Positions 1 to 7,024 of a stretch of 7,024 nucleotides of DNA are shown here, piece by piece. The notes under the pieces were generated by a model. That model was given only the letters and a program-made list of their open reading frames with translations, was not told where the DNA came from and made no database searches. The DNA is from a virus (Duplodnaviria > Heunggongvirae > Uroviricota > Caudoviricetes): IMG/VR virus record IMGVR_UViG_2547132272_000021, positions 1-7,024 of that record; one strand, 5' to 3'. Every line of letters starts with the position of its first letter. Position 1 is the stretch's first letter. A program made the position numbers and the translations under genes.

Positions 1-82
1 CCATACCCACGGATTACGGGTGCTGGTCACTGCCCCTTCCAGCTTAAGCTCTCCGCTGAAATCCTCTCCCGGCGTGTTCCAG
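1..82 (-). pseudogene. Distal part of a host ORF interrupted by the insertion (exported-protein-like)
   Basis: The minus-strand frame is open from 82 to the window edge (...WNTPGEDFSGELKLEGAVTSTRNPWVW) and has no start codon of its own. It joins in frame to the 6981-7024 fragment once 83-6980 and one TCCAG copy are removed. Confidence 0.6.
78..82. repeat. Target-site duplication, left copy (TCCAG)
   Basis: TCCAG lies immediately outside the TG terminus at 83. An identical 5-mer lies immediately outside the CA terminus at 6980. The match does not extend on either side. A 5-bp duplication is the Mu transposition signature. Confidence 0.85.
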
Positions 83-87
83 TGTGA

Positions 88-109
88 TGGTTCATGATAA
101 ATACGAAAA
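88..109 (+). repeat. MuA-type transposase end-binding site, L1-like
   Basis: TGGTTCATGATAAATACGAAAA matches 18 of the 19 specified positions of TGNTTCAYTNNAARYRCGAAAR. It occupies nt 6-27 from the terminus, which is where I recall Mu L1 lying (TGTAT-TGATTCAC... in Mu, TGTGA-TGGTTCAT... here). Confidence 0.85.
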
Positions 110-215
110 GAATAATCCGGGATTAGGTTAGTAAAGACGGGAATAGATTGGAGTGAAAAATCTTTTGTATCAGCAGTTTGTTAGCGCAAAGATATGTGTT
201 GGTAAAGTTATCCCT

Positions 216-237
216 TCATTTCTGTGAAACACGAAAA
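216..237 (+). repeat. MuA-type end-binding site, L2-like (weaker first half)
   Basis: TCATTTCTGTGAAACACGAAAA matches the AARYRCGAAAR half perfectly, but the TTCAY half is degenerate, giving about 14 of 19 positions. It has the same orientation as L1. Confidence 0.6.
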
Positions 238-256
238 AATGAAAGGATTACGTGAT

Positions 257-278
257 TGTTTCACTAAAGAGGCGAAAA
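257..278 (+). repeat. MuA-type end-binding site, L3-like
   Basis: TGTTTCACTAAAGAGGCGAAAA matches 17 of 19 consensus positions and has the same orientation as L1. It starts 41 bp after the L2-like site, which resembles the L2-L3 spacing I recall for Mu attL. Confidence 0.75.
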
Positions 279-393
279 GATGGTTGATTGTATAAAGTCT
301 TCAAATATGTTCAAAACCGCTTCAATACTGCATTTGAAGCTGGTTTAAGGTGGGGCATAGGTGTCTGATAACAGAATTTACTATAAACTTTGT

Positions 394-403
394 TGATGCA
401 TCA
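394..403. promoter_or_regulatory. Perfect 10-bp palindrome TGATGCATCA (candidate operator)
   Basis: The sequence is self-complementary. It shares the TGCAT core with the 476-493 palindrome and with 505-509. Confidence 0.35.
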
Positions 404-426
404 TGAATTTAAATGTTTTTATTTAA

Positions 427-439
427 AATCAATGCGTTA
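427..439 (+). promoter_or_regulatory. IHF consensus match (WATCAANNNNTTR)
   Basis: AATCAATGCGTTA fits every specified position. It is preceded by an A/T-rich tract (405-426) and lies between the two TGCAT palindromes. Confidence 0.45.
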
Positions 440-475
440 GTGAATATTACATGATACATAGGTGTAAAGTAGCGC

Positions 476-493
476 ATTGCATATCTATGCAAT
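476..493. promoter_or_regulatory. Inverted repeat ATTGCATA-tc-TATGCAAT (candidate operator)
   Basis: It has 8-bp perfect arms and a 2-bp spacer. It lies about 25 bp upstream of the candidate promoter. Confidence 0.4.
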
Positions 494-516
494 ATGTGTC
501 GGATGTGCATAAACAC

Positions 517-545
517 TTGCCAACCAATTTTATTGTTGATAACTT
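517..545 (+). promoter_or_regulatory. Candidate sigma70 promoter of the immunity operon
   Basis: TTGCCA (517-522), a 17-bp spacer and TAACTT (540-545). Alternatives are TTGATA (536-541), 16 bp, GATAAA (558-563), or the TATAAA at 545-550. The choice between them is ambiguous. Confidence 0.35.
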
Positions 546-552
546 ATAAAAG

Positions 553-571
553 CACTCGATAAAGTCGAGTG
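553..571 (+). other. Stem-loop CACTCGA-taaag-TCGAGTG at or near the predicted 5' end of the immunity transcript
   Basis: It has a 7-bp perfect stem and a 5-nt loop, with no U-tract after it. It could be a 5' stabiliser hairpin or a palindromic operator overlapping the alternative -10. Confidence 0.3.
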
Positions 572-685
572 TCGGGCGTAGGAACCCGTGTAAGCACATG
601 GCGACACAAGACGCGCCAAGCGTCTTTTTTATTGTCGTAATATCAGCGCACCTGCATTCAGTGGCTTATGGTGCACCGTATCTAT

Positions 686-761
686 GGTGGCGCTGGTGGG
701 GCAGTCGAAAGGCTGGCCGGTTTCCTTGTGCGCCGGTATTCCTACCCCCGCCAGCGTCACC
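686..761 (+). ncRNA. P1 C4 / P4 CI-type immunity antisense RNA (about 76 nt)
   Basis: A 16-bp closing stem pairs 686-701 with 746-761 (14 Watson-Crick plus 2 G.U pairs). An inner hairpin pairs 717-720 with 733-736. Its 12-nt loop (721-732, TTTCCTTGTGCG) is complementary to 805-816 across the icd-like Shine-Dalgarno sequence. The single-stranded TTCCTAC (739-745) is complementary to GTAGGAA at 775-781 and 578-584. The size and position upstream of an Icd-like gene match the P1 C4 (77 nt) and P4 CI RNAs. Confidence 0.7.
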
Positions 762-774
762 GCCCCTTATGAGT

Positions 775-816
775 GTAGGAACTCAGGCGGTGACTCCTTA
801 AATTTGCACGAGGAGG
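775..816 (+). promoter_or_regulatory. Antisense-RNA target boxes (a2-like 775-781, b2-like 805-816) covering the icd-like RBS
   Basis: TGCACGAGGAGG (805-816) pairs with the RNA loop 721-732 through 8 Watson-Crick and 4 G.U pairs, and it contains the GAGGAGG SD (810-816). GTAGGAAC is repeated at 578-585, which is the a1-like copy. Confidence 0.6.
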
Positions 817-823
817 CTGCCAA

Positions 824-1021
824 ATGGCTACGACCCCAACCACTTTACGCTCTGAATTTACCTTTCATTTTCTGGCTGTTCGCCGTTCCGATCTGAACGA
901 CCGCCCACACCGCGAATCTATTAACGCACCTGATGAAGCAACTGCCCGTCGTATGCTGGCACGTGATTTTGTGTTGGTGTTTGCTGCCTGCATCCCTGCT
1001 AAAGGGGGTAAACATGAATAA
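824..1021 (+). CDS. icd: Host cell division inhibitor Icd-like protein (65 aa)
   Basis: The motif F.FLAVRRSDL..PH....A.DEA.ARRMLARDFVLVFAA is characteristic of Icd-like proteins of P1 and P4-type elements. A strong SD (GAGGAGG) lies 7 nt upstream of the ATG. Confidence 0.8.
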   Translation: MATTPTTLRSEFTFHFLAVRRSDLNDRPHRESINAPDEATARRMLARDFVLVFAACIPAKGGKHE

Positions 1022-1418
1022 TGTTGTCAAGTTTCCGGTGCGGAATAATAAAAAAGTTGCGAAATCGAGAGAAGATATTGCTGTAAATCTGTTTAAAGAT
1101 ATTGTTGCTGCTTTATCAAAACAGGCGCGTGACTATATTAATGATGGCGTTACCGGGATCAATGGATGCCTAGATGGTAATGGCGGATATGAAACCTTTC
1201 TATCCTCTTTGTTGCTTTATATTCGTGGCATTGACTCAAAAATTGGCCTGTTTAGTATGTCTCTTGATTCAATACATCCAATACTACATGATGCATGCAA
1301 TGACTTAACGAAAGTTATTTCCCTGACGGAGCGTTTTATTGAAAGTAGAGGCGTAATCGCAGAGGCGGCAAATGGAAAACTTACAGAAGAACAAACGCGG
1401 CAGACTTTCAAAAATTGA
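1014..1418 (+). CDS. Hypothetical protein (134 aa) in the ant/eps position of the immunity operon
   Basis: The ATG at 1014 is preceded by GGGGG (1004-1008) and overlaps the icd-like stop (ATGAATAA), which suggests translational coupling. I recognise no family for this protein. Confidence 0.6.
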   Translation: MNNVVKFPVRNNKKVAKSREDIAVNLFKDIVAALSKQARDYINDGVTGINGCLDGNGGYETFLSSLLLYIRGIDSKIGLFSMSLDSIHPILHDACNDLTKVISLTERFIESRGVIAEAANGKLTEEQTRQTFKN

Positions 1419-1734
1419 ATTGCTGCCTGAAAAGATAAAAAGGAAGCTTGATAAAATGCTTATCTCACGTAAGTATTCTCAGGCTGAAATTCTAAATATC
1501 ATAGATCAGGATATAGTAATAGCAGGGTGTTCAGAACTGGTCATATCCAAAACCGGATTGAACAGATATGCGATTAGTTTAATCAATGCTGTTTCGGTAG
1601 CCAAGAAGCATGGAGAAGTGTCTCGCCGTTATAAGCATGCCGAACTACACAGGAGACTTGATAAACTTGAATCAAAGATAGACAGATTAGGGACCAGACT
1701 TGAACGAGTGTTAGAGCTTCTCGAAAAACATTAA
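1372..1734 (+). CDS. Mu gp27 / DUF3486-like small-terminase-like DNA-binding protein (120 aa)
   Basis: The N-terminus KRGRLSKIELLPEKIKRKLDKML...SQAEIL...ISKTGLNRYA fits the R.SK+D.LP.E+R..+D..L......+..EI......+S+S.L.RY pattern of Mu-like gp27 proteins, followed by a coiled-coil C-terminus. An SD (GAGG) lies 6 nt upstream of the ATG. Confidence 0.6.
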   Translation: MENLQKNKRGRLSKIELLPEKIKRKLDKMLISRKYSQAEILNIIDQDIVIAGCSELVISKTGLNRYAISLINAVSVAKKHGEVSRRYKHAELHRRLDKLESKIDRLGTRLERVLELLEKH

Positions 1735-1741
1735 CTATCCC

Positions 1742-1767
1742 AAAGCCGCCCCGTGCGGCTTTTTTAT
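1742..1767 (+). terminator. Rho-independent terminator ending the immunity/terS-like operon
   Basis: AAAGCCGC-cccgt-GCGGCTTT gives an 8-bp stem that runs into a T6 tract, 8 nt after the stop codon. Confidence 0.85.
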
Positions 1768-1935
1768 TGTTTGGCACTCGCTGTACATATCAGCGCATAT
1801 TTCATGGAAAACGGTAAATCTATCTTCCCTAAAAATCCCGAGTAATCTCACAGCATCCAGAGCAAACGGAGATGGTTCTTTTTTGAAAAAATTATGTTTT
1901 ATCACAATCGGGGATAAACTTATTTTTGATTCCCA

Positions 1936-1970
1936 TATCCGCAATAATCGTTATCGTAACATTGCGGATA
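1936..1970. promoter_or_regulatory. 10-bp perfect inverted repeat TATCCGCAAT-N15-ATTGCGGATA (candidate regulator-binding dyad)
   Basis: It sits in the 287-bp non-coding gap (1768-2054) upstream of the Mor-like genes. It is interdigitated with CGTTATC (1949-1955) / GATAACG (1967-1973), and a tandem ATCGCGC-ATCGCGC lies at 1998-2011. Confidence 0.4.
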
Positions 1971-2054
1971 ACGTTAAGTTTGCTGCAAGCATTGGCTATC
2001 GCGCATCGCGCTCAAATGTACACAGGTATATGCAAAAGCTTAAGCGAGAAGATT

Positions 2055-2783
2055 ATGGCTAAACAAACCTTTAAAAATCTCATGTTAACGCCGCCACACA
2101 ATGATATTACAGCGATAAATAAATTCATTGTTTCTTCATGCTTTTCTCGTGATATCTGTGATGTTATGTCTTATATCGGTAAAATGGGATATGCATGTAA
2201 TTATAATGAAGTCAGTGAGCATGTGAAATTGATTGAAAAACAATTCCACGCAGTAAAACATGAACAGAGAGGCGAGTGTGAAATTGATGTTTTTTGTAAT
2301 GTCGCAGGCACCGCTCTCTTTAATGAATTTATATCTGTTTGCGGGAAACAGACGTTCTATCTTGATGCAATGAAATTTGAACCGGATTTTTTTAGTGGTG
2401 GCCCGGTTAAGCATATCCGCAAAACTGCTATTATCGCTTTATTGAGAAATGAAACAAAGATTCTTCCAGAAAGTGTGACCATGATTATGGGCGCTATTGA
2501 GGCGGCATTAAAAAAAATTGGAGTAGACCCACAAGAAGAAGTAAACAGCACGACAAAAATATTCATTGCAACAAAGGCATTTCTGGAAGTTGTAGGTGGA
2601 ATTCAGTTTTATTTACCTAAGGCCGACTCACTTAGTAGAATAATGAAAAAAGCAAATATATATGCAGATAGTTATGTTATGTCTCCTGCTGAACTAGCTA
2701 TTAAATATGGGGAGTCTGGTAAATCGATATACACAACAATAAAACATGTAGGAGCGGTTATTGGTAATCATGAGCAAAGTTAA
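2055..2783 (+). CDS. Mor/C-family transcriptional activator paralog with a roughly 130-aa N-terminal extension (242 aa; start uncertain, alternatively 2016)
   Basis: The C-terminal ~110 aa (LKKIGVDPQEE...VVGGIQFYLPKADSLSRIMKKANIY...MSPAELAIKYGESGKSIYTTIKH) aligns with Mu Mor as I recall it (LSRLGVDPAHS...LGGGQVYIPRGQALDSLIRDLRIW...VSELTTRYGVTFNTVYKAIRR). Confidence 0.65.
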   Translation: MAKQTFKNLMLTPPHNDITAINKFIVSSCFSRDICDVMSYIGKMGYACNYNEVSEHVKLIEKQFHAVKHEQRGECEIDVFCNVAGTALFNEFISVCGKQTFYLDAMKFEPDFFSGGPVKHIRKTAIIALLRNETKILPESVTMIMGAIEAALKKIGVDPQEEVNSTTKIFIATKAFLEVVGGIQFYLPKADSLSRIMKKANIYADSYVMSPAELAIKYGESGKSIYTTIKHVGAVIGNHEQS

Positions 2784-3192
2784 CATAAATAATGCACACA
2801 TATTACAAACAGGTCTGAGCCTCGGTATTGATGTAATGAGAAGTAATCTTCCTGAAGAGTTAAAACTTGTAGAACGTGCAGTTATTGAATCATGTAATGA
2901 TATTGGCTTAAATCCAGAGCATGAAATTAATGGTTTATCATTTATTGGTCGGGTCATATTAAAAATAATGGAACTACAAACCGGATGTAGTTTCATACCT
3001 GAGTATGCGATTGATTCATCCAGAATTATTTTTATTTCTAAAGTTGCTGCATATGCAGAAAAATTTGGAGCAGATAAAGCAGCCAAAGCCTACTCCATTA
3101 CAGTAGATCAGGTTACGGAAATGATGAATGAAGCAAGTATGTTTGTTTCCCAATTTGATGATTTTGGTATAGACAAGGAGAAAAGCCACTGA
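2770..3192 (+). CDS. Second Mor/C-family activator paralog (140 aa)
   Basis: LPEELKLVERAVIESCNDIGLNPEHEIN parallels LPESVTMIMGAIEAALKKIGVDPQEEVN of the upstream protein. G-C-S-F-IPE corresponds to the GG.Q.YIP motif, and the C-terminal AKAYSITVDQVTEMM is HTH-like. The gene overlaps the upstream gene by 14 nt. Confidence 0.5.
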   Translation: MSKVNINNAHILQTGLSLGIDVMRSNLPEELKLVERAVIESCNDIGLNPEHEINGLSFIGRVILKIMELQTGCSFIPEYAIDSSRIIFISKVAAYAEKFGADKAAKAYSITVDQVTEMMNEASMFVSQFDDFGIDKEKSH

Positions 3193-3246
3193 AACACGCT
3201 GTGATGTTGTTTTGTCTTATCGGCGGTGTTCTGGGTGCCCTGCACC

Positions 3247-3290
3247 TTTTTGAAGGTGCTACGGTGTTTTTGAAGGGGTTTTGAAGGGGG
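3247..3290 (+). repeat. Three direct TTTTGAAGG(G) repeats in the gap upstream of the gpI-like gene (candidate activator-dependent late promoter region)
   Basis: The copies are TTTTTGAAGG at 3247-3256, TTTTTGAAGGGG at 3267-3278 and TTTTGAAGGGGG at 3279-3290, with a degenerate TTTTGCA at 3291. The first copy lies inside the hairpin GCACCTT-tttg-AAGGTGC (3242-3259). I could not find a convincing sigma70 -35/-10 pair. Confidence 0.4.
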
Positions 3291-3300
3291 TTTTGCATCC

Positions 3301-4140
3301 ATGACAGAGGAACTAATGAATATAATCGCTTTATGCACTGATTTATCGGGTGATAAGACTCCTCCGGAATGGGTTGAGTTACTGCCAGCAGGACCGGAAA
3401 TTGAAGGGCGTGACGGAAGGAGCTGGACACTTAAAGATCCACAAAGCATTAAACAGGCGTTTTCGTGTCGCGGAATGTCACTTGTGGTCGATTATGAACA
3501 CTCTACAGAAGTGATTGCACCAAAAGGTGGCGAGGCTCCTGCCGCCGGATGGATTAATGACGTTGCTGTCCGTAATGATGGTTCTGTATGGGGAAGAGTT
3601 GAATGGACTCCACGGGCAATGAATTCCATTACATCCCGTGAATACCGATACCTTTCACCAGCGTTCCGTCATTCTCAGGATGGTGAAATACTGGAACTCG
3701 TTAGCGTGGCGTTAACGAATAAACCAAATCTGAAACTTACTGCGCTGAATACTCAGCAGACACTTAGCAAAATCGCACTGGCACTTAATATGGAGGAAGT
3801 TAATTCACTTGAAGAAGTGCTGACAGCGTTAAATAAAAGACAAGCTGAACAACATAGTCAGATTGTAAATGAATATATCGAAAAAGCTGTTTTCTGTCCG
3901 GCCCAGCGGAATATTCTTCTGTCCATGTGTTCAAGTGTTGGAGAAAATGCATTCAGGAAGTTTGCTGATATGCAGGAAAAATCGACGAGTAATTTTTTAC
4001 ACTTTGCTAGGCCTGTAAGTGTAAAAGGTAAAGAACCCCCGAGAACGCTTACTGAATCGCAACTGGCTGTTTGCCGCATTACAGGTGTAAGCGAAGAAGA
4101 CTATTTGATAGCTTTAGGAAAAGAAAATGAAAGATATTAA
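3301..4140 (+). CDS. Mu gpI-like prohead protease / scaffold (279 aa)
   Basis: PEWVELLPAGPEIEGRDGRSW...DYEHS...AGWI...VEWT..A...I....YRYLSPAF... is the Mu-like prophage I protein signature. The C-terminal third is helical and charged, which is scaffold-like. Confidence 0.85.
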   Translation: MTEELMNIIALCTDLSGDKTPPEWVELLPAGPEIEGRDGRSWTLKDPQSIKQAFSCRGMSLVVDYEHSTEVIAPKGGEAPAAGWINDVAVRNDGSVWGRVEWTPRAMNSITSREYRYLSPAFRHSQDGEILELVSVALTNKPNLKLTALNTQQTLSKIALALNMEEVNSLEEVLTALNKRQAEQHSQIVNEYIEKAVFCPAQRNILLSMCSSVGENAFRKFADMQEKSTSNFLHFARPVSVKGKEPPRTLTESQLAVCRITGVSEEDYLIALGKENERY

Positions 4141-5023
4141 TTGTGTAATTGCTGATGCTACTATCGCTTTTAACGCCAAGTTTGAATCAGGAAAAAAAGC
4201 CTACAATCCTGTACATCCAACGATTGCTTCAGAAGTAACGTCTTCATCGGCAGTTAGTGCTTATGGCTTCCTCGAAGATTTCCCGGAAATCAAAGAGTGG
4301 TTAAACGACCGACAGTTAAAATCACTGTCAACCCGTGATTATTTTCTGAAAAATAAAACGTTTGAAAGCAGCATTCAAATTAAACGTGAGGATTTTGAAG
4401 ATAATGATTATGGTAAGTATTCAATGGTTTTTGAACAGTACGGGCGCAAAGCGGCTGCATTCCCTGATAAGTTACTGTTTGAAGCTATGAAGAAAGGGCA
4501 CTTATCAGAAGGAATTGATGGGCATAACTTCTTTGCTACTGACCATCCTAATGGTGAAGGCGTTTATTCAAACCTCTATGGAAGCAATCCAGCAAAAAAT
4601 GCAGATGCAACGCCGTTATGGTACTTATTTGATGGTAGTCAGGGATTGAAACCTTTTATTTATCAGGTTCGTCGTCCAATGGCTGTAACTTCTGTTACTG
4701 ATTCCGGCGCTACCGATGTGTTTCTGAATAATCGTTTTCTGTTTGGTGTTGATGGGCGTCTTAATGTTGGATATGCAATGTGGCAATGCGCAGCGGCATC
4801 ATGGGATACGCTGAATGAAACCACATTTAATGAAGTGTACGACGGGATGTTATCCGTTAAGGGAAGTAGCGGTGAACCATTGGGAATCGTGCCTACTGTT
4901 ATTGTAGTCCCCGTATCGTTAAGAGCCGCAGCGGAAAAATTGCTGTTACGTCAGTATCTGGATAACGGGGAAGACAATCCAAATTATAAACGCGTGGAAA
5001 TTATTGTTTCACCATTTATTTGA
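4127..5023 (+). CDS. Mu gpT-like major capsid protein (298 aa)
   Basis: It is colinear with Mu T as I recall it, over segments such as YGFLEDFPEIKEWLNDRQ, FESSIQIKREDFEDN, DGHNFFATDHP, LKPFIYQ, NVGYAMWQ, VVPVSLR and NGEDNPNY. An AGGA SD lies 7 nt upstream, and the gene overlaps the gpI-like gene by 14 nt. Confidence 0.9.
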   Translation: MKDINCVIADATIAFNAKFESGKKAYNPVHPTIASEVTSSSAVSAYGFLEDFPEIKEWLNDRQLKSLSTRDYFLKNKTFESSIQIKREDFEDNDYGKYSMVFEQYGRKAAAFPDKLLFEAMKKGHLSEGIDGHNFFATDHPNGEGVYSNLYGSNPAKNADATPLWYLFDGSQGLKPFIYQVRRPMAVTSVTDSGATDVFLNNRFLFGVDGRLNVGYAMWQCAAASWDTLNETTFNEVYDGMLSVKGSSGEPLGIVPTVIVVPVSLRAAAEKLLLRQYLDNGEDNPNYKRVEIIVSPFI

Positions 5024-5029
5024 TAATTC

Positions 5030-5054
5030 GGAGGGGATTTCCCCTCCTGTTTTT
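5030..5054 (+). terminator. Rho-independent terminator/attenuator directly after the capsid gene
   Basis: GGAGGGG-attt-CCCCTCC gives a 7-bp GC-rich stem followed by TGTTTTT, 6 nt after the capsid stop codon. Confidence 0.75.
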
Positions 5055-5066
5055 ATGGGGAATATA

Positions 5067-6854
5067 ATGAGTAATAAGTTAAGCACGGAAATACTGATAA
5101 ATCTTACGGGAAATCTTACCGCTAAAGCACGACAGTACGGCGCAAATATGTCGCAGTTCGCCCGTAACCATCAGAAGGCAATGCGACTGGTCAAGGCCAC
5201 AACTGAATCCGCCACGCGTGGCCTTGATATGCTGGGTAATCGTTACACAGCGATGATTGCAGGTTTTGCAGGTAGCGCCATGATGCGTGAGTTTGCACAG
5301 GTTGATCGCCGGATGACCCGTATTGGTATTGCCGCAGAAAAGACGCGCGACGAAATGGCACAGATGCTGAATGGTATTCAGGACACCGCCATCAAATTTA
5401 AGGTTGATGACAGTGAACTGATAAGCGCGGTGGAAAAAGTTGGCACAATAACAGGCGAGATTGAGTTTGGCATCAAGAATAAGGATGTTATGGCGGCCTC
5501 CATCGCGGCTTCAGGAAGTGAAGGCGAGTTCATTGGCTCGCTGTTTTCCCTGTTTACGAAGTTTGGCATTAAGAATGAAGACGACTCACTGAAGGCCATG
5601 GACACCCTGAACCTGCTGGGGAAGGAAGGTGCCTATGAATTGAAAGACTTTGCAGAAAAATCCACCCGCGGGATGTCGCTGTATGCCGCTGCAGGTGGAC
5701 GGGGCGTAAAGGGTGTCAAGGAGTTTGGTGTTGTAATGGAATCTGCTGTGGATGCCACCGGGAACCGTGATACAGCAGCCACAACGGTGGAAAATTTCAT
5801 AAAAGATTTGCAGAACCCGAAAGTCGTCAAAACGCTTAAGCATAATGGCATTAACGTATTCGATAGCGAAGGCCATATGCGTTCACTGCCCGTTCTTCTT
5901 CAGGAGATTGCCACCCGCTCGGGAAGCAAAGGCTCGGAAATACAATCCAAACGACTGGATGAAGCCGGATTTCTTGATGACGCAAAAATGTTAATCAAAT
6001 CGGTAACGTCCGGTAAAGGCGCAGAAAACCTGCAACGCTATATGAAAGTCGTCGGTGATGGAAAAGGCATCATGAAGGATGCCGCATATGCCGCACAGGA
6101 CTTTACGTCTTCCATGCAGGCGCTGGAAACCAGCTGGAAAAAATTCTCTCATAACCAACTGGCAAAACCTGTTCAGGAACTGGCTGATGCCATTAACAGT
6201 GTCGACCAGAACACTGTCCAGAACTGGCTACAGGTTGCCAAATACATGGCGATTGCTGTGGGCGGCATTATCGCCGTGCGTAAGACGTACAAGCTCGGTA
6301 AAACCATCCACGACATCATGAATCCCAAAGAGAAAGGCAAAGGGATACCCGGCAGTATTACGGATGTTTTCGGTTCTGGCGTGATGCCAGTGTATGTGGT
6401 CAATATGGGCAGCGGTGGGATGAATGGTAATACCAGTGGTTTGCCGGATGCGCCGGATTCATCACGCAATCCCCGTGGACCAAAGACGCCAACACTGGTT
6501 ACACCACAAACGGTATCAGGATTTAATCTCCTTGACATGGCGCTATCTGCTTTCCCCAAAAATAAAGAGGAAGCTGACGCGTTAATCGCACGGGTTCAGG
6601 AAAACAACAACCGCCCGACGGTATGGACGGATATTAAGAACTGGTTTAACTCTCTGGAGAAAAAGAACATCGCCGCTCCATCTCCGTGGGATGTCCTGCA
6701 ATCCACACAGAACGCGCCATTCGTACCACAGCAATTGCAGGGAGAAATCCGTGTGGTGGTGGAAGGTGATGCACGCGTGAAAAGCGTCAGAGTGGATCAA
6801 CCTGGCGTCAGACTTAGTGCTCAGGCAGGGGTTACCAGTGTAGAACAAAGTTAA
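5067..6854 (+). CDS. Tail tape-measure-like protein (TP901/PhageMin_Tail-type core; 595 aa)
   Basis: The central region (FAQVDRRMTRIGIAAEKTRDEM...AASIAASGSEGEFIGSLFSLFTKFGI...NLLGKEGAYELKDFA...GINVFDSEGHMRSLPVLLQEIA) looks like tape-measure core repeats. The C-terminal part has a hydrophobic segment (YMAIAVGGIIAV) and a Gly-rich stretch. I chose the ATG at 5067 because GGGGA lies 6 nt upstream, whereas the TTG at 5004 would overlap the capsid gene and the terminator. Confidence 0.7.
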   Translation: MSNKLSTEILINLTGNLTAKARQYGANMSQFARNHQKAMRLVKATTESATRGLDMLGNRYTAMIAGFAGSAMMREFAQVDRRMTRIGIAAEKTRDEMAQMLNGIQDTAIKFKVDDSELISAVEKVGTITGEIEFGIKNKDVMAASIAASGSEGEFIGSLFSLFTKFGIKNEDDSLKAMDTLNLLGKEGAYELKDFAEKSTRGMSLYAAAGGRGVKGVKEFGVVMESAVDATGNRDTAATTVENFIKDLQNPKVVKTLKHNGINVFDSEGHMRSLPVLLQEIATRSGSKGSEIQSKRLDEAGFLDDAKMLIKSVTSGKGAENLQRYMKVVGDGKGIMKDAAYAAQDFTSSMQALETSWKKFSHNQLAKPVQELADAINSVDQNTVQNWLQVAKYMAIAVGGIIAVRKTYKLGKTIHDIMNPKEKGKGIPGSITDVFGSGVMPVYVVNMGSGGMNGNTSGLPDAPDSSRNPRGPKTPTLVTPQTVSGFNLLDMALSAFPKNKEEADALIARVQENNNRPTVWTDIKNWFNSLEKKNIAAPSPWDVLQSTQNAPFVPQQLQGEIRVVVEGDARVKSVRVDQPGVRLSAQAGVTSVEQS

Positions 6855-6856
6855 AT

Positions 6857-6887
6857 ATATGCTGTATATCACAAAATAGCAGCATAT
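6857..6887. repeat. Inverted repeat ATATGCTG-N15-CAGCATAT after the last gene, containing a possible degenerate third MuA-type site
   Basis: It has 8-bp perfect arms. The loop and right arm (6865-6886, TATATCACAAAATAGCAGCATA) share TCACAAAA with the R1/R2-like sites but match only about 10 of 19 consensus positions. The orientation is opposite to R1/R2. Confidence 0.25.
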
Positions 6888-6931
6888 TAATTCAATGCGT
6901 CCGATTTTTTATTCGGTGGTGTTTTGTTTTT

Positions 6932-6953
6932 TTTTCGCGCTTTTTGTGAGATG
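6932..6953 (-). repeat. MuA-type end-binding site, R2-like
   Basis: The minus strand reads CATCTCACAAAAAGCGCGAAAA, about 15 of 19 consensus positions. It directly abuts the R1-like site in the same orientation. The two 22-mers are 20/22 identical. Confidence 0.75.
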
Positions 6954-6975
6954 CTTTCGCGCTTTTTGTGAAACG
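6954..6975 (-). repeat. MuA-type end-binding site, R1-like
   Basis: The minus strand reads CGTTTCACAAAAAGCGCGAAAG, 17 of 19 consensus positions. It occupies nt 6-27 from the CA terminus, exactly mirroring the L1-like site at the other end. Confidence 0.85.
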
Positions 6976-6980
6976 CCTCA

Positions 6981-6985
6981 TCCAG
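6981..6985. repeat. Target-site duplication, right copy (TCCAG)
   Basis: It is identical to 78-82 and directly abuts the CA-3' terminus. Confidence 0.85.
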
Positions 6986-7024
6986 GCCAGTACACAGGAA
7001 GGCAGGAGGCTGGCAGCAAACAGA
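6981..7024 (-). pseudogene. Proximal part of the interrupted host ORF (signal-peptide-like segment)
   Basis: The minus-strand frame reads LFAASLLPSCVLAW. In the present state it runs on into the element end (MRRFTKSAKASHKKREKKTKHHRIKNRTH) and stops at the TGA complementary to 6892-6894. In the reconstructed empty site it continues as NTPGEDFSGELKLEG... Confidence 0.6.

Follow-up and report, generated by a model that had tools for sequence, protein, structure and literature searches.

The stretch of viral DNA analysed here (positions 1 to 7,024 of IMG/VR virus record IMGVR_UViG_2547132272_000021, assigned to the Caudoviricetes; the whole 7,024 nt are referred to below as the window) is occupied almost entirely by a Mu-type element, and nucleotides 552–830 of it very probably constitute an IsrK/C4 immunity module, of the type known as immI in phage P1 and as seqA-CI-seqC in P4, which forms the first transcription unit within the left end of this non-autonomous element. 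Judged by its sequence and predicted fold, the antisense RNA at the centre of the module is a bona fide member of the C4/CI family, and taken alone it is an ordinary one that a routine Rfam scan would recover. An earlier note, made from the letters of the sequence, had proposed that an antisense RNA of this kind is embedded in a Mu-type element with its loop masking the Shine–Dalgarno (SD) sequence of an icd-like gene, and the results given below support that proposal in most respects and amend it in others. The features of the module and of its immediate surroundings are as follows.

476–493, no strand assigned: perfect palindrome ATTGCATA-TC-TATGCAAT, about 24 nt upstream of the −35 sequence.
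517–545, plus strand: putative sigma-70 promoter (TTGCCA-17 nt-TAACTT), read by eye, with a start near G552.
552–630, plus strand: IsrK-family leader small RNA (sRNA), equivalent to the P4 seqA region (RF01394 match; terminator scan).
680–767, plus strand: C4/CI-type antisense RNA, with b′ as the loop at 721–732 and a′ at 739–745 (RF01695 match; fold; covariation).
770–785, plus strand: a2 target hairpin UGAG-UGUAGGAA-CUCA, with GUAGGAA at 775–781 (a′-a2 duplex energy).
786–794, plus strand: GGCGGUGAC, able to pair with the 3′ strand of the closing stem of C4 (756–764) as an alternative helix in the unprocessed transcript.
805–816, plus strand: b2 target, including the SD sequence GAGGAGG (810–816) of the icd-like gene (12/12 pairing with b′).
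824–1021, plus strand: Icd-like gene of 65 aa (NCBIfam phage_ICD_like, NF033153, 71.8 bits; cut-off 25).

The assignment to the C4 family is carried by homology, fold and covariation. Nucleotides 680–767 of the plus strand match the Rfam C4 family (RF01695) over model positions 1–87, i.e. at full length, with a score of 77.1 bits (E = 2.7e-14; curated gathering cut-off 45 bits), and the covariance-model search that the earlier note had named as a check returned both C4 and isrK above their gathering thresholds. The minimum free energy (MFE) of 680–767 is −48.8 kcal/mol (z = −4.4), a value that was equalled by none of 200 shuffled sequences. A closing stem of 16 bp (686–701/746–761) is present in the MFE fold and one of 17 bp (685–701/746–762) in the structure as drawn by Rfam; the 16-bp stem described earlier thus stands, but it encloses two hairpins (702–715 and 716–737, the second of which bears the 12-nt loop 721–732) and not one. 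When the fold was examined in an alignment of 12 loci, including P4, P1-like, N15-like, Stx and other phages, all 324 base-pair cells of its 27 pairs were occupied by standard pairs, and 11 of the 27 showed double-sided, compensatory changes, as would be expected of a conserved stem; in a control with slid partners, pairing fell to 26–49 %. Four copies of the element, which differ from one another by up to approximately 5 % overall, were also compared, and the module was found to be 99 % identical between them, with just two changes inside C4, both of the G.U-to-G-C type that keeps the pair, and with all four target sites invariant. On this comparative evidence the C4 RNA of the element is probably functional. 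Its mature form is predicted from the GGW rule (PMC5320573) to span approximately 686–762, which would give a 77-nt RNA with a GGU start comparable to the C4 RNA of P1, which is released by RNase P as an RNA of 77 nt and blocks the ribosome-binding site with its b′ loop (PMC5320573).

Both of the recognition segments of this RNA have partners a short distance downstream. The b′ loop (UUUCCUUGUGCG) pairs with 805–816 (UGCACGAGGAGG) at 12 of 12 positions, through 8 Watson–Crick and 4 G.U pairs, in a duplex of −16.7 kcal/mol that covers the SD sequence, exactly as had been claimed; when the 100 nt downstream were shuffled 20,000 times, a 12/12 site appeared in just 19 cases, and 805–816 is the sole 12/12 site for the loop on the plus strand that has GTAGGAA no more than 80 nt upstream of it. 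The a′ sequence TTCCTAC is present once (739–745) and, in agreement with the earlier reading of this heptamer, can pair with GTAGGAA, of which the plus strand of the 7-kb window has exactly two copies (578–584 and 775–781), each in the loop of a small hairpin; the a′-a2 duplex (739–745 with 775–781) is paired at 7 of 7 positions with an energy of −9.0 kcal/mol. For the comparison between loci, pairing of loop and target was scored by duplex energies on positionally defined targets, the longest contiguous run (G.U allowed) having been dropped as a measure since it was too noisy for G/U-rich loops. In all 12 loci the best partner of the b′ loop was its own b2, with a mean of −13.6 kcal/mol for own and −7.0 kcal/mol for cross combinations. 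The own a2 and a1 rank first for a′ in every locus, or tie with those of loci that have an identical a′, and the own b1 ranks first for b′ in 11 of the 12; across the loci the stem of the a2 hairpin is invariant and its loop varies together with a′.

The combination of recognition sequences found in the window, an a′ shared with N15-like phages and a b′ loop unseen in the other loci, also bears on the suggestion that C4 acts mainly on other elements, in cross-immunity or interference with co-resident phages, and not on its own operon. The identity of a′ (AUUCCUAC) to that of the N15-like phages phiKO2, PY54 and 48ST307 would favour such a role. We consider it improbable, as none of the other 11 loci has this b′ loop, which pairs with its own b2 at −16.7 kcal/mol as against −12.8 kcal/mol or weaker with others, and no combined a2+b2 target for C4 was found in a helper-type Mu-like prophage.

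The upstream part of the module is an IsrK-family leader. Nucleotides 552–630 of the plus strand match Rfam isrK (RF01394) at full length with 59.4 bits (curated cut-off 50 bits), and comprise a first hairpin (552–571), a second hairpin (573–588) with a1, GUAGGAA, in its loop (578–584), the b1 sequence (594–601) and an intrinsic terminator (608–630) that is supported by the terminator scan. The upstream copy of GTAGGAA is therefore the loop of the second IsrK hairpin and no stray repeat. The a1/b1-RNA-a2/b2 layout recognized earlier is thus homologous to that of P4 and of P1-like D6, with the amendment that its upstream copy is the middle of an IsrK-family sRNA. The a′-a1 duplex is perfect (−9.3 kcal/mol), and that of b′ with b1 has an energy of −10.1 kcal/mol. 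The putative promoter at 517–545 has the same position as the promoters upstream of isrK in P4 and other loci. A palindrome of the same form (ATTGCATA-NN-TATGCAAT, 18 bp) as that at 476–493 is found upstream of isrK in a distant Vibrio locus (L018, 4164–4181), approximately 15 nt upstream of the −35 sequence of the isrK promoter, and is absent from the Yersinia and metagenome relatives of the element; it may be a regulator-binding site, for an operator function or for an activator.

The gene whose SD sequence is covered by b′ was correctly identified in the earlier note, as the ORF (open reading frame) that begins 7 nt downstream of GAGGAGG, with ATG at 824, is the one that matches phage_ICD_like. 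Four of its five substitutions among element copies are at third codon positions, and its 3′ end overlaps the beginning of the following ORF (1014–1021). The same coding signature is lacking from the frame that overlaps C4. This ORF (642/684–896) matches Pfam Phage_ASH (PF10554) with 62.9 bits, carries the RefSeq (PGAP) label ‘ash family protein’ in all copies and is also matched by PHROG ‘transcriptional repressor’ families, all of which would be explained if the locus encoded an Ash-family protein and the RNA-like fold were incidental. We give that explanation hardly any credence. There is no excess of substitutions at third positions of the frame (0.255/0.306/0.309 by codon position), which in six of the 12 homologs (D6, RCS47, Kp48ST307, PY54, YDC107_1 and Kpn74), P1-like phages among them, is interrupted by stop codons or by indels that are not multiples of three; the variation is explained by compensatory base-pair changes; and the corresponding P4 ‘cI ORF’ is known as an RNA gene (PMC3632133, PMC4825925). 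The pattern fits an RNA gene translated in silico, and the check for a protein-coding pattern that had been proposed therefore came out on the side of the RNA. The dismissal of the overlapping ORFs as artefacts of the Ash kind is to be softened in one respect, namely that the equivalent frame of the Salmonella prophage Gifsy-1, orf45, has been shown to be translated and to be coupled to the next gene (PMC4825925), so that by analogy the Ash frame of the window may be translated as well. RefSeq lists no RNA feature at the C4/isrK locus, and ‘Ash family protein’ annotations here again mark unannotated C4 RNAs.

A megablast search of the whole window against the phage collection gave no match. 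Distant blastn searches with the module identified P4 (73 % identity over 573–885), the P1-like D6 and RCS47 (71–72 % identity) and, further, P1-like JL22, Stx, N15-like and other phages as homologs, and the tandem of isrK followed by C4 was present in all 11 phage loci examined, including P4, RCS47, D6 and N15-like phages. In the literature these are treated as one system, ‘IsrK-C4 immunity’, which corresponds to seqA plus CI RNA of P4 and is found also in P1, P7, N15 and lambdoid prophages (PMC3632133; PMC4825925). P4 resembles the element in that the isrK and C4 models match in the same order, the RNA heads the main operon and an Icd-like ORF follows directly, and in that it too is a small element, helper-dependent as ours would be and without a protein repressor. 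It differs in the sequences of a′ and b′, and hence in immunity specificity, in the length of the isrK-C4 spacer (107 nt in P4, 49 nt in the element), in its downstream genes (epsilon/alpha replication in P4, Mu-type head and tail in the element) and in its means of mobility (an integrase in P4, Mu ends in the element). With immI of P1 and P7 (a1/b1-c4-a2/b2-icd-ant) the element shares the layout and the position of the b′ loop over the icd SD; however, it has neither a downstream antirepressor gene nor a C1-type primary repressor to antagonise, and departs from a P1-type immI in that no Ant, Bro or KilA gene was found after the Icd-like gene, the downstream genes being of Mu type. N15, phiKO2 and PY54 (icd-antA-antB) have the identical a′/a1/a2 heptamer, UUCCUAC/GUAGGAA, followed by an Icd-like gene, but differ in the b′ loop and in the presence of antirepressors downstream.

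From these likenesses we infer how C4 might be processed, act in trans, exert polarity on the downstream genes and be relieved. Transcription would begin at approximately 552 from the promoter at approximately 517–545, and most transcripts would end at 608–630, yielding an IsrK-like RNA of about 77 nt that displays the decoys a1 and b1. Read-through transcripts would carry C4, to be cut out, probably by RNase P before G686, as an RNA of about 77 nt. Its a′ and b′ segments would bind a2 (775–781) and b2 (805–816) on read-through mRNA and so mask the icd SD; icd being untranslated, transcription would terminate prematurely and the coupled genes for the Mor-like activator, head protease, major head protein and tape measure would remain silent. 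Titration of C4 by the IsrK-like RNA, or by a burst of transcription, would open the operon. Because the icd stop overlaps the start at 1014 and the genes are co-oriented as far as 6854, such a switch could hold the whole element silent, as the CI RNA does the left operon of P4.

A different mode of action is suggested by the IsrK-orf45 (STnc1160)-anrP locus of Gifsy-1, which is like the element in having the isrK and C4 tandem by Rfam, with the same a1/b1-a′/b′-a2/b2 logic of pairing, and in that its IsrK is a terminated leader sRNA; it differs in having no icd, b2 lying over the SD of anrP. The Rfam C4 match in Gifsy-1 falls inside the published ‘orf45’, right after isrK (L017, 34131–34214), and the b2-equivalent over the anrP SD. 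The published mechanism is an IsrK-dependent activation of translation through orf45 (PMC4825925), and the authors likened the processed RNA STnc1160 to the CI RNA of P4 (PMC4825925); by its sequence the Gifsy-1 locus could be read as C4-type. Transferred to the window, a switch of the Gifsy-1 type would mean that the C4-like region acts mainly in cis, with the middle of IsrK paired to a′/b′ in an inactive read-through mRNA, and that short IsrK opens this structure in trans so that the ORF from AUG 684 drives what lies downstream, a scheme that could coexist with regulation by a free C4. Besides the shared arrangement, it has in its favour that IsrK acting in trans activates translation of orf45 and anrP, and that orf45 is translated (PMC4825925), that the same AUGGUGG start is found at 684 in the window, and that the alternative helix 756–764/786–794 is conserved. 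This helix is paired to 98 % across the 12 loci, with double changes in five of its nine pairs; it lies outside the Rfam model and encloses, or presents, the a2 hairpin, and by analogy it may have a role in processing or in the choice of conformation in cis as reported for Gifsy-1. In the window, however, the SD sequence within b2 belongs to a separate Icd-like gene, as it does in P1, and the ORF from 684 enters icd in a different frame and stops at 896, which leaves no possibility of stop-start coupling as in Gifsy-1; moreover, there is no evident SD ahead of 684, the 684 frame is not conserved among homologs, and the processed STnc1160 of approximately 80 nt that was also detected in Gifsy-1 is compatible with a C4-type RNA (PMC4825925). 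We therefore regard a Gifsy-1-type switch as unlikely to be the principal mechanism here, though it deserves to be kept in view.

Several points weigh against our interpretation of 552–830 as a C4 immunity module of the P1/P4 type. Four of the 12 pairs in the b′-b2 duplex are G.U, and the b′-b1 duplex contains one internal mismatch, which makes the upstream decoy weaker than in most homologs. The Rfam c4-a1b1 model (RF03163) aligns at the position of IsrK with 21 bits against a cut-off of 46.7, and being below threshold has led us to file the upstream element under isrK. The promoter at 517–545 was absent from the list of the automatic promoter scan and was inferred by eye and from homology. 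The Gifsy-1 experiments favoured a structural switch in cis with translation of the overlapping ORF (PMC4825925). Finally, among the relatives of the element described below, those of Klebsiella (L019) and Citrobacter (L021/L022) have the Mor-like/protease/gpT/tape-measure core without C4 or isrK, so that the module appears to be exchangeable and not essential to this type of element.

The element that houses the module extends from 83 to 6980 (6,898 bp), nearly the whole of the window, and is bordered on both sides by a 5-bp duplication, TCCAG. Its features outside the module are listed here.

78–82, no strand assigned: left target-site duplication TCCAG (empty-site reconstruction).
83–280, plus strand: Mu-type left end, with a TG start and MuA-site-like repeats at 90–109, 218–237 and 259–278 (consensus scan).
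1014–6854, plus strand: co-oriented genes downstream of icd (Pfam and PHROG matches, RefSeq annotation), comprising the following seven entries.
Within 1014–6854, plus strand: orf134 (RefSeq annotation/Pfam/PHROG list).
1372–1734, plus strand: gp27-like gene, truncated (Pfam/PHROG).
2055–2783, plus strand: Mor-like gene (Pfam/PHROG).
Within 1014–6854, between the Mor-like and protease genes, plus strand: orf140 (gene list).
3301–4140, plus strand: Mu I protease gene (Pfam/PHROG).
4127–5023, plus strand: gpT major head gene (Pfam/PHROG).
5067–6854, plus strand: tape-measure gene (Pfam/PHROG).
6932–6980, minus strand: Mu-type right end, with MuA-site-like repeats at 6932–6951 and 6954–6973 and the terminal CA at 6979–6980 (consensus scan).
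6981–6985, no strand assigned: right target-site duplication TCCAG (empty-site reconstruction).

These boundaries follow from reconstruction of the empty site: when 1–82 is joined to 6986–7024 the result is an uninterrupted faeI, aligned over 121 of 121 nt at 99.2 % identity with other E. coli records. Matches in E. coli genomes likewise begin at 77–83 and finish at 6980–6986, at differing chromosomal sites where a gene is interrupted. The flanks (1–82 and 6986–7024) correspond to a faeI-like gene, for a minor subunit of the F4/K88 fimbria, which is mostly plasmid-borne in other strains, and a gene of a fimbrial operon has therefore been disrupted here by the element. A scan with the MuA-site consensus gave six matches where 0.83 were expected, five of them at the ends and in inverted orientation, and the left and right ends are similar to the L1 and R ends, respectively, of a full Mu-like prophage. 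The earlier statement that an RNA switch is combined with Mu ends was therefore right as to the ends, but the host is a transposase-less element of 6.9 kb and not a Mu phage.

With Mu and mini-Mu derivatives the element has in common its TG...CA termini, the MuA-site-like repeats (three on the left and two on the right), the 5-bp duplication, a tape-measure gene and Mu-family genes for gp27, Mor, I and T. It differs from them in lacking A/B, c/ner, lysis, portal, terminase or tail genes, and in carrying the RNA module in place of the early region. Indeed, neither an ORF nor a Pfam match for MuA/MuB transposition proteins or a c/ner-type repressor was found in 83–6980, MuA/MuB and c/ner-type genes being present in the separate Mu-like prophage, and beyond the genes listed above no portal, terminase or tail genes were found by Pfam/PHROG gene content. 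Two ORFs (1014–1418 and 2770–3192) had no match in Pfam, NCBIfam or PHROGs. The gp27-like protein covers just the first 64 of 173 profile positions, and the Mor-like protein is extended at its N terminus by approximately 130 aa that match no family. The tape-measure gene is 83–84 % identical in DNA to that of complete Mu-like prophages, whereas no DNA homolog of the protease and major head genes was detected elsewhere in E. coli, which indicates modules with different histories.

Among 5,426 complete E. coli genomes the element was present in nine, in 14 copies (two copies in five of the nine), in addition to the faeI insertion in the window. This distribution bears on the view that the module has lost its activity and persists as a relic in a decaying fragment of Mu origin, for which the absence of a transposase and of most phage genes could be adduced, as could the STEC388 copy truncated by IS1, an insertion sequence (IS) that is located directly behind gpT and replaces the end of its tape-measure gene (L003, 10999–11696). 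We consider this very improbable: the 14 copies and the faeI insertion are at different sites and all have intact ends and target duplications, every ORF is intact, the module with its four invariant target sites shows stronger conservation than the remainder of the element, and the arrangement of module and capsid genes is found also in Yersinia and Vibrio.

Homologs of gpT with 70–79 % identity were found in Klebsiella, Citrobacter, Yersinia, Serratia and Salmonella, and several of these homologs lie on contigs of approximately 6.5–7 kb; the core kept in the relatives consists of Mor-like, orf137, protease, gpT and tape-measure genes. The Yersinia element has isrK and C4, and inspection by eye gave it TG...CA ends flanked by a duplication, ACGGA; it has no match to the E. 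coli MuA-site consensus, and a short-word BLAST search of the element ends against related loci gave no match. An IS lies between gpT and the tape-measure gene in this relative (L020, 7535–8971). A further relative, on a metagenome contig, carries C4, and in a Vibrio locus with a 40 %-identical gpT, isrK and C4 are placed just upstream of the protease and head genes; the scan of genome contigs for gpT returned the Vibrio metagenome-assembled genome alone. The same pairing logic is realized with different sequences in the Yersinia, metagenome and Vibrio relatives. In the relatives without C4 and isrK the left module consists, in Citrobacter, of small ORFs and an oppositely oriented HicB-like gene and, in Klebsiella, of small ORFs alone, without a family match. 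The association of C4 with this type of element is thus recurrent but not obligatory.

As to what the element is, its gene content and ends allow the tentative suggestion, which we would rate as a serious possibility rather than a probability, that it represents an undescribed kind of satellite: a natural mini-Mu without a transposase, transposed and presumably packaged by a Mu-like helper and kept quiescent by IsrK/C4 alone, with a head protease, major head protein and tape measure of its own. A MuA-like transposase gene is present in nine of the nine carrier genomes, compared with 85 of 5,426 overall; several carriers are clonally related, however, and this co-occurrence is therefore suggestive and not statistical proof. 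Each of the eight carriers whose element keeps the tape-measure gene has at least one further tape-measure locus of the 83–84 % type. In a complete Mu-like prophage the left end is occupied by c/ner-type genes, and C4 and isrK are absent from it. Capsid-forming phage-inducible chromosomal islands and P4-like satellites are comparable in that they are small, in that they have some capsid genes of their own and in the presence of a matching complete phage (here in nine of nine genomes); they differ in that the element lacks the typical integrase, primase and packaging genes and owes its mobility to transposition. A search of the literature, confined to a limited collection, yielded no account of a satellite of Mu type, nor of a Mu-type element that carries C4.

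The RNA itself adds one specificity variant to a well-described immunity module, and the wider interest lies in the element that hosts it. If the above reading is true, C4-type RNA immunity would have been adopted independently by two unrelated satellite lifestyles, that of P4, with its integrase, and that of transposition. If the element is truly a satellite, it would extend phage satellites to the transposable phages, and it would offer a simple system whose sole lysogeny switch is an antisense RNA.

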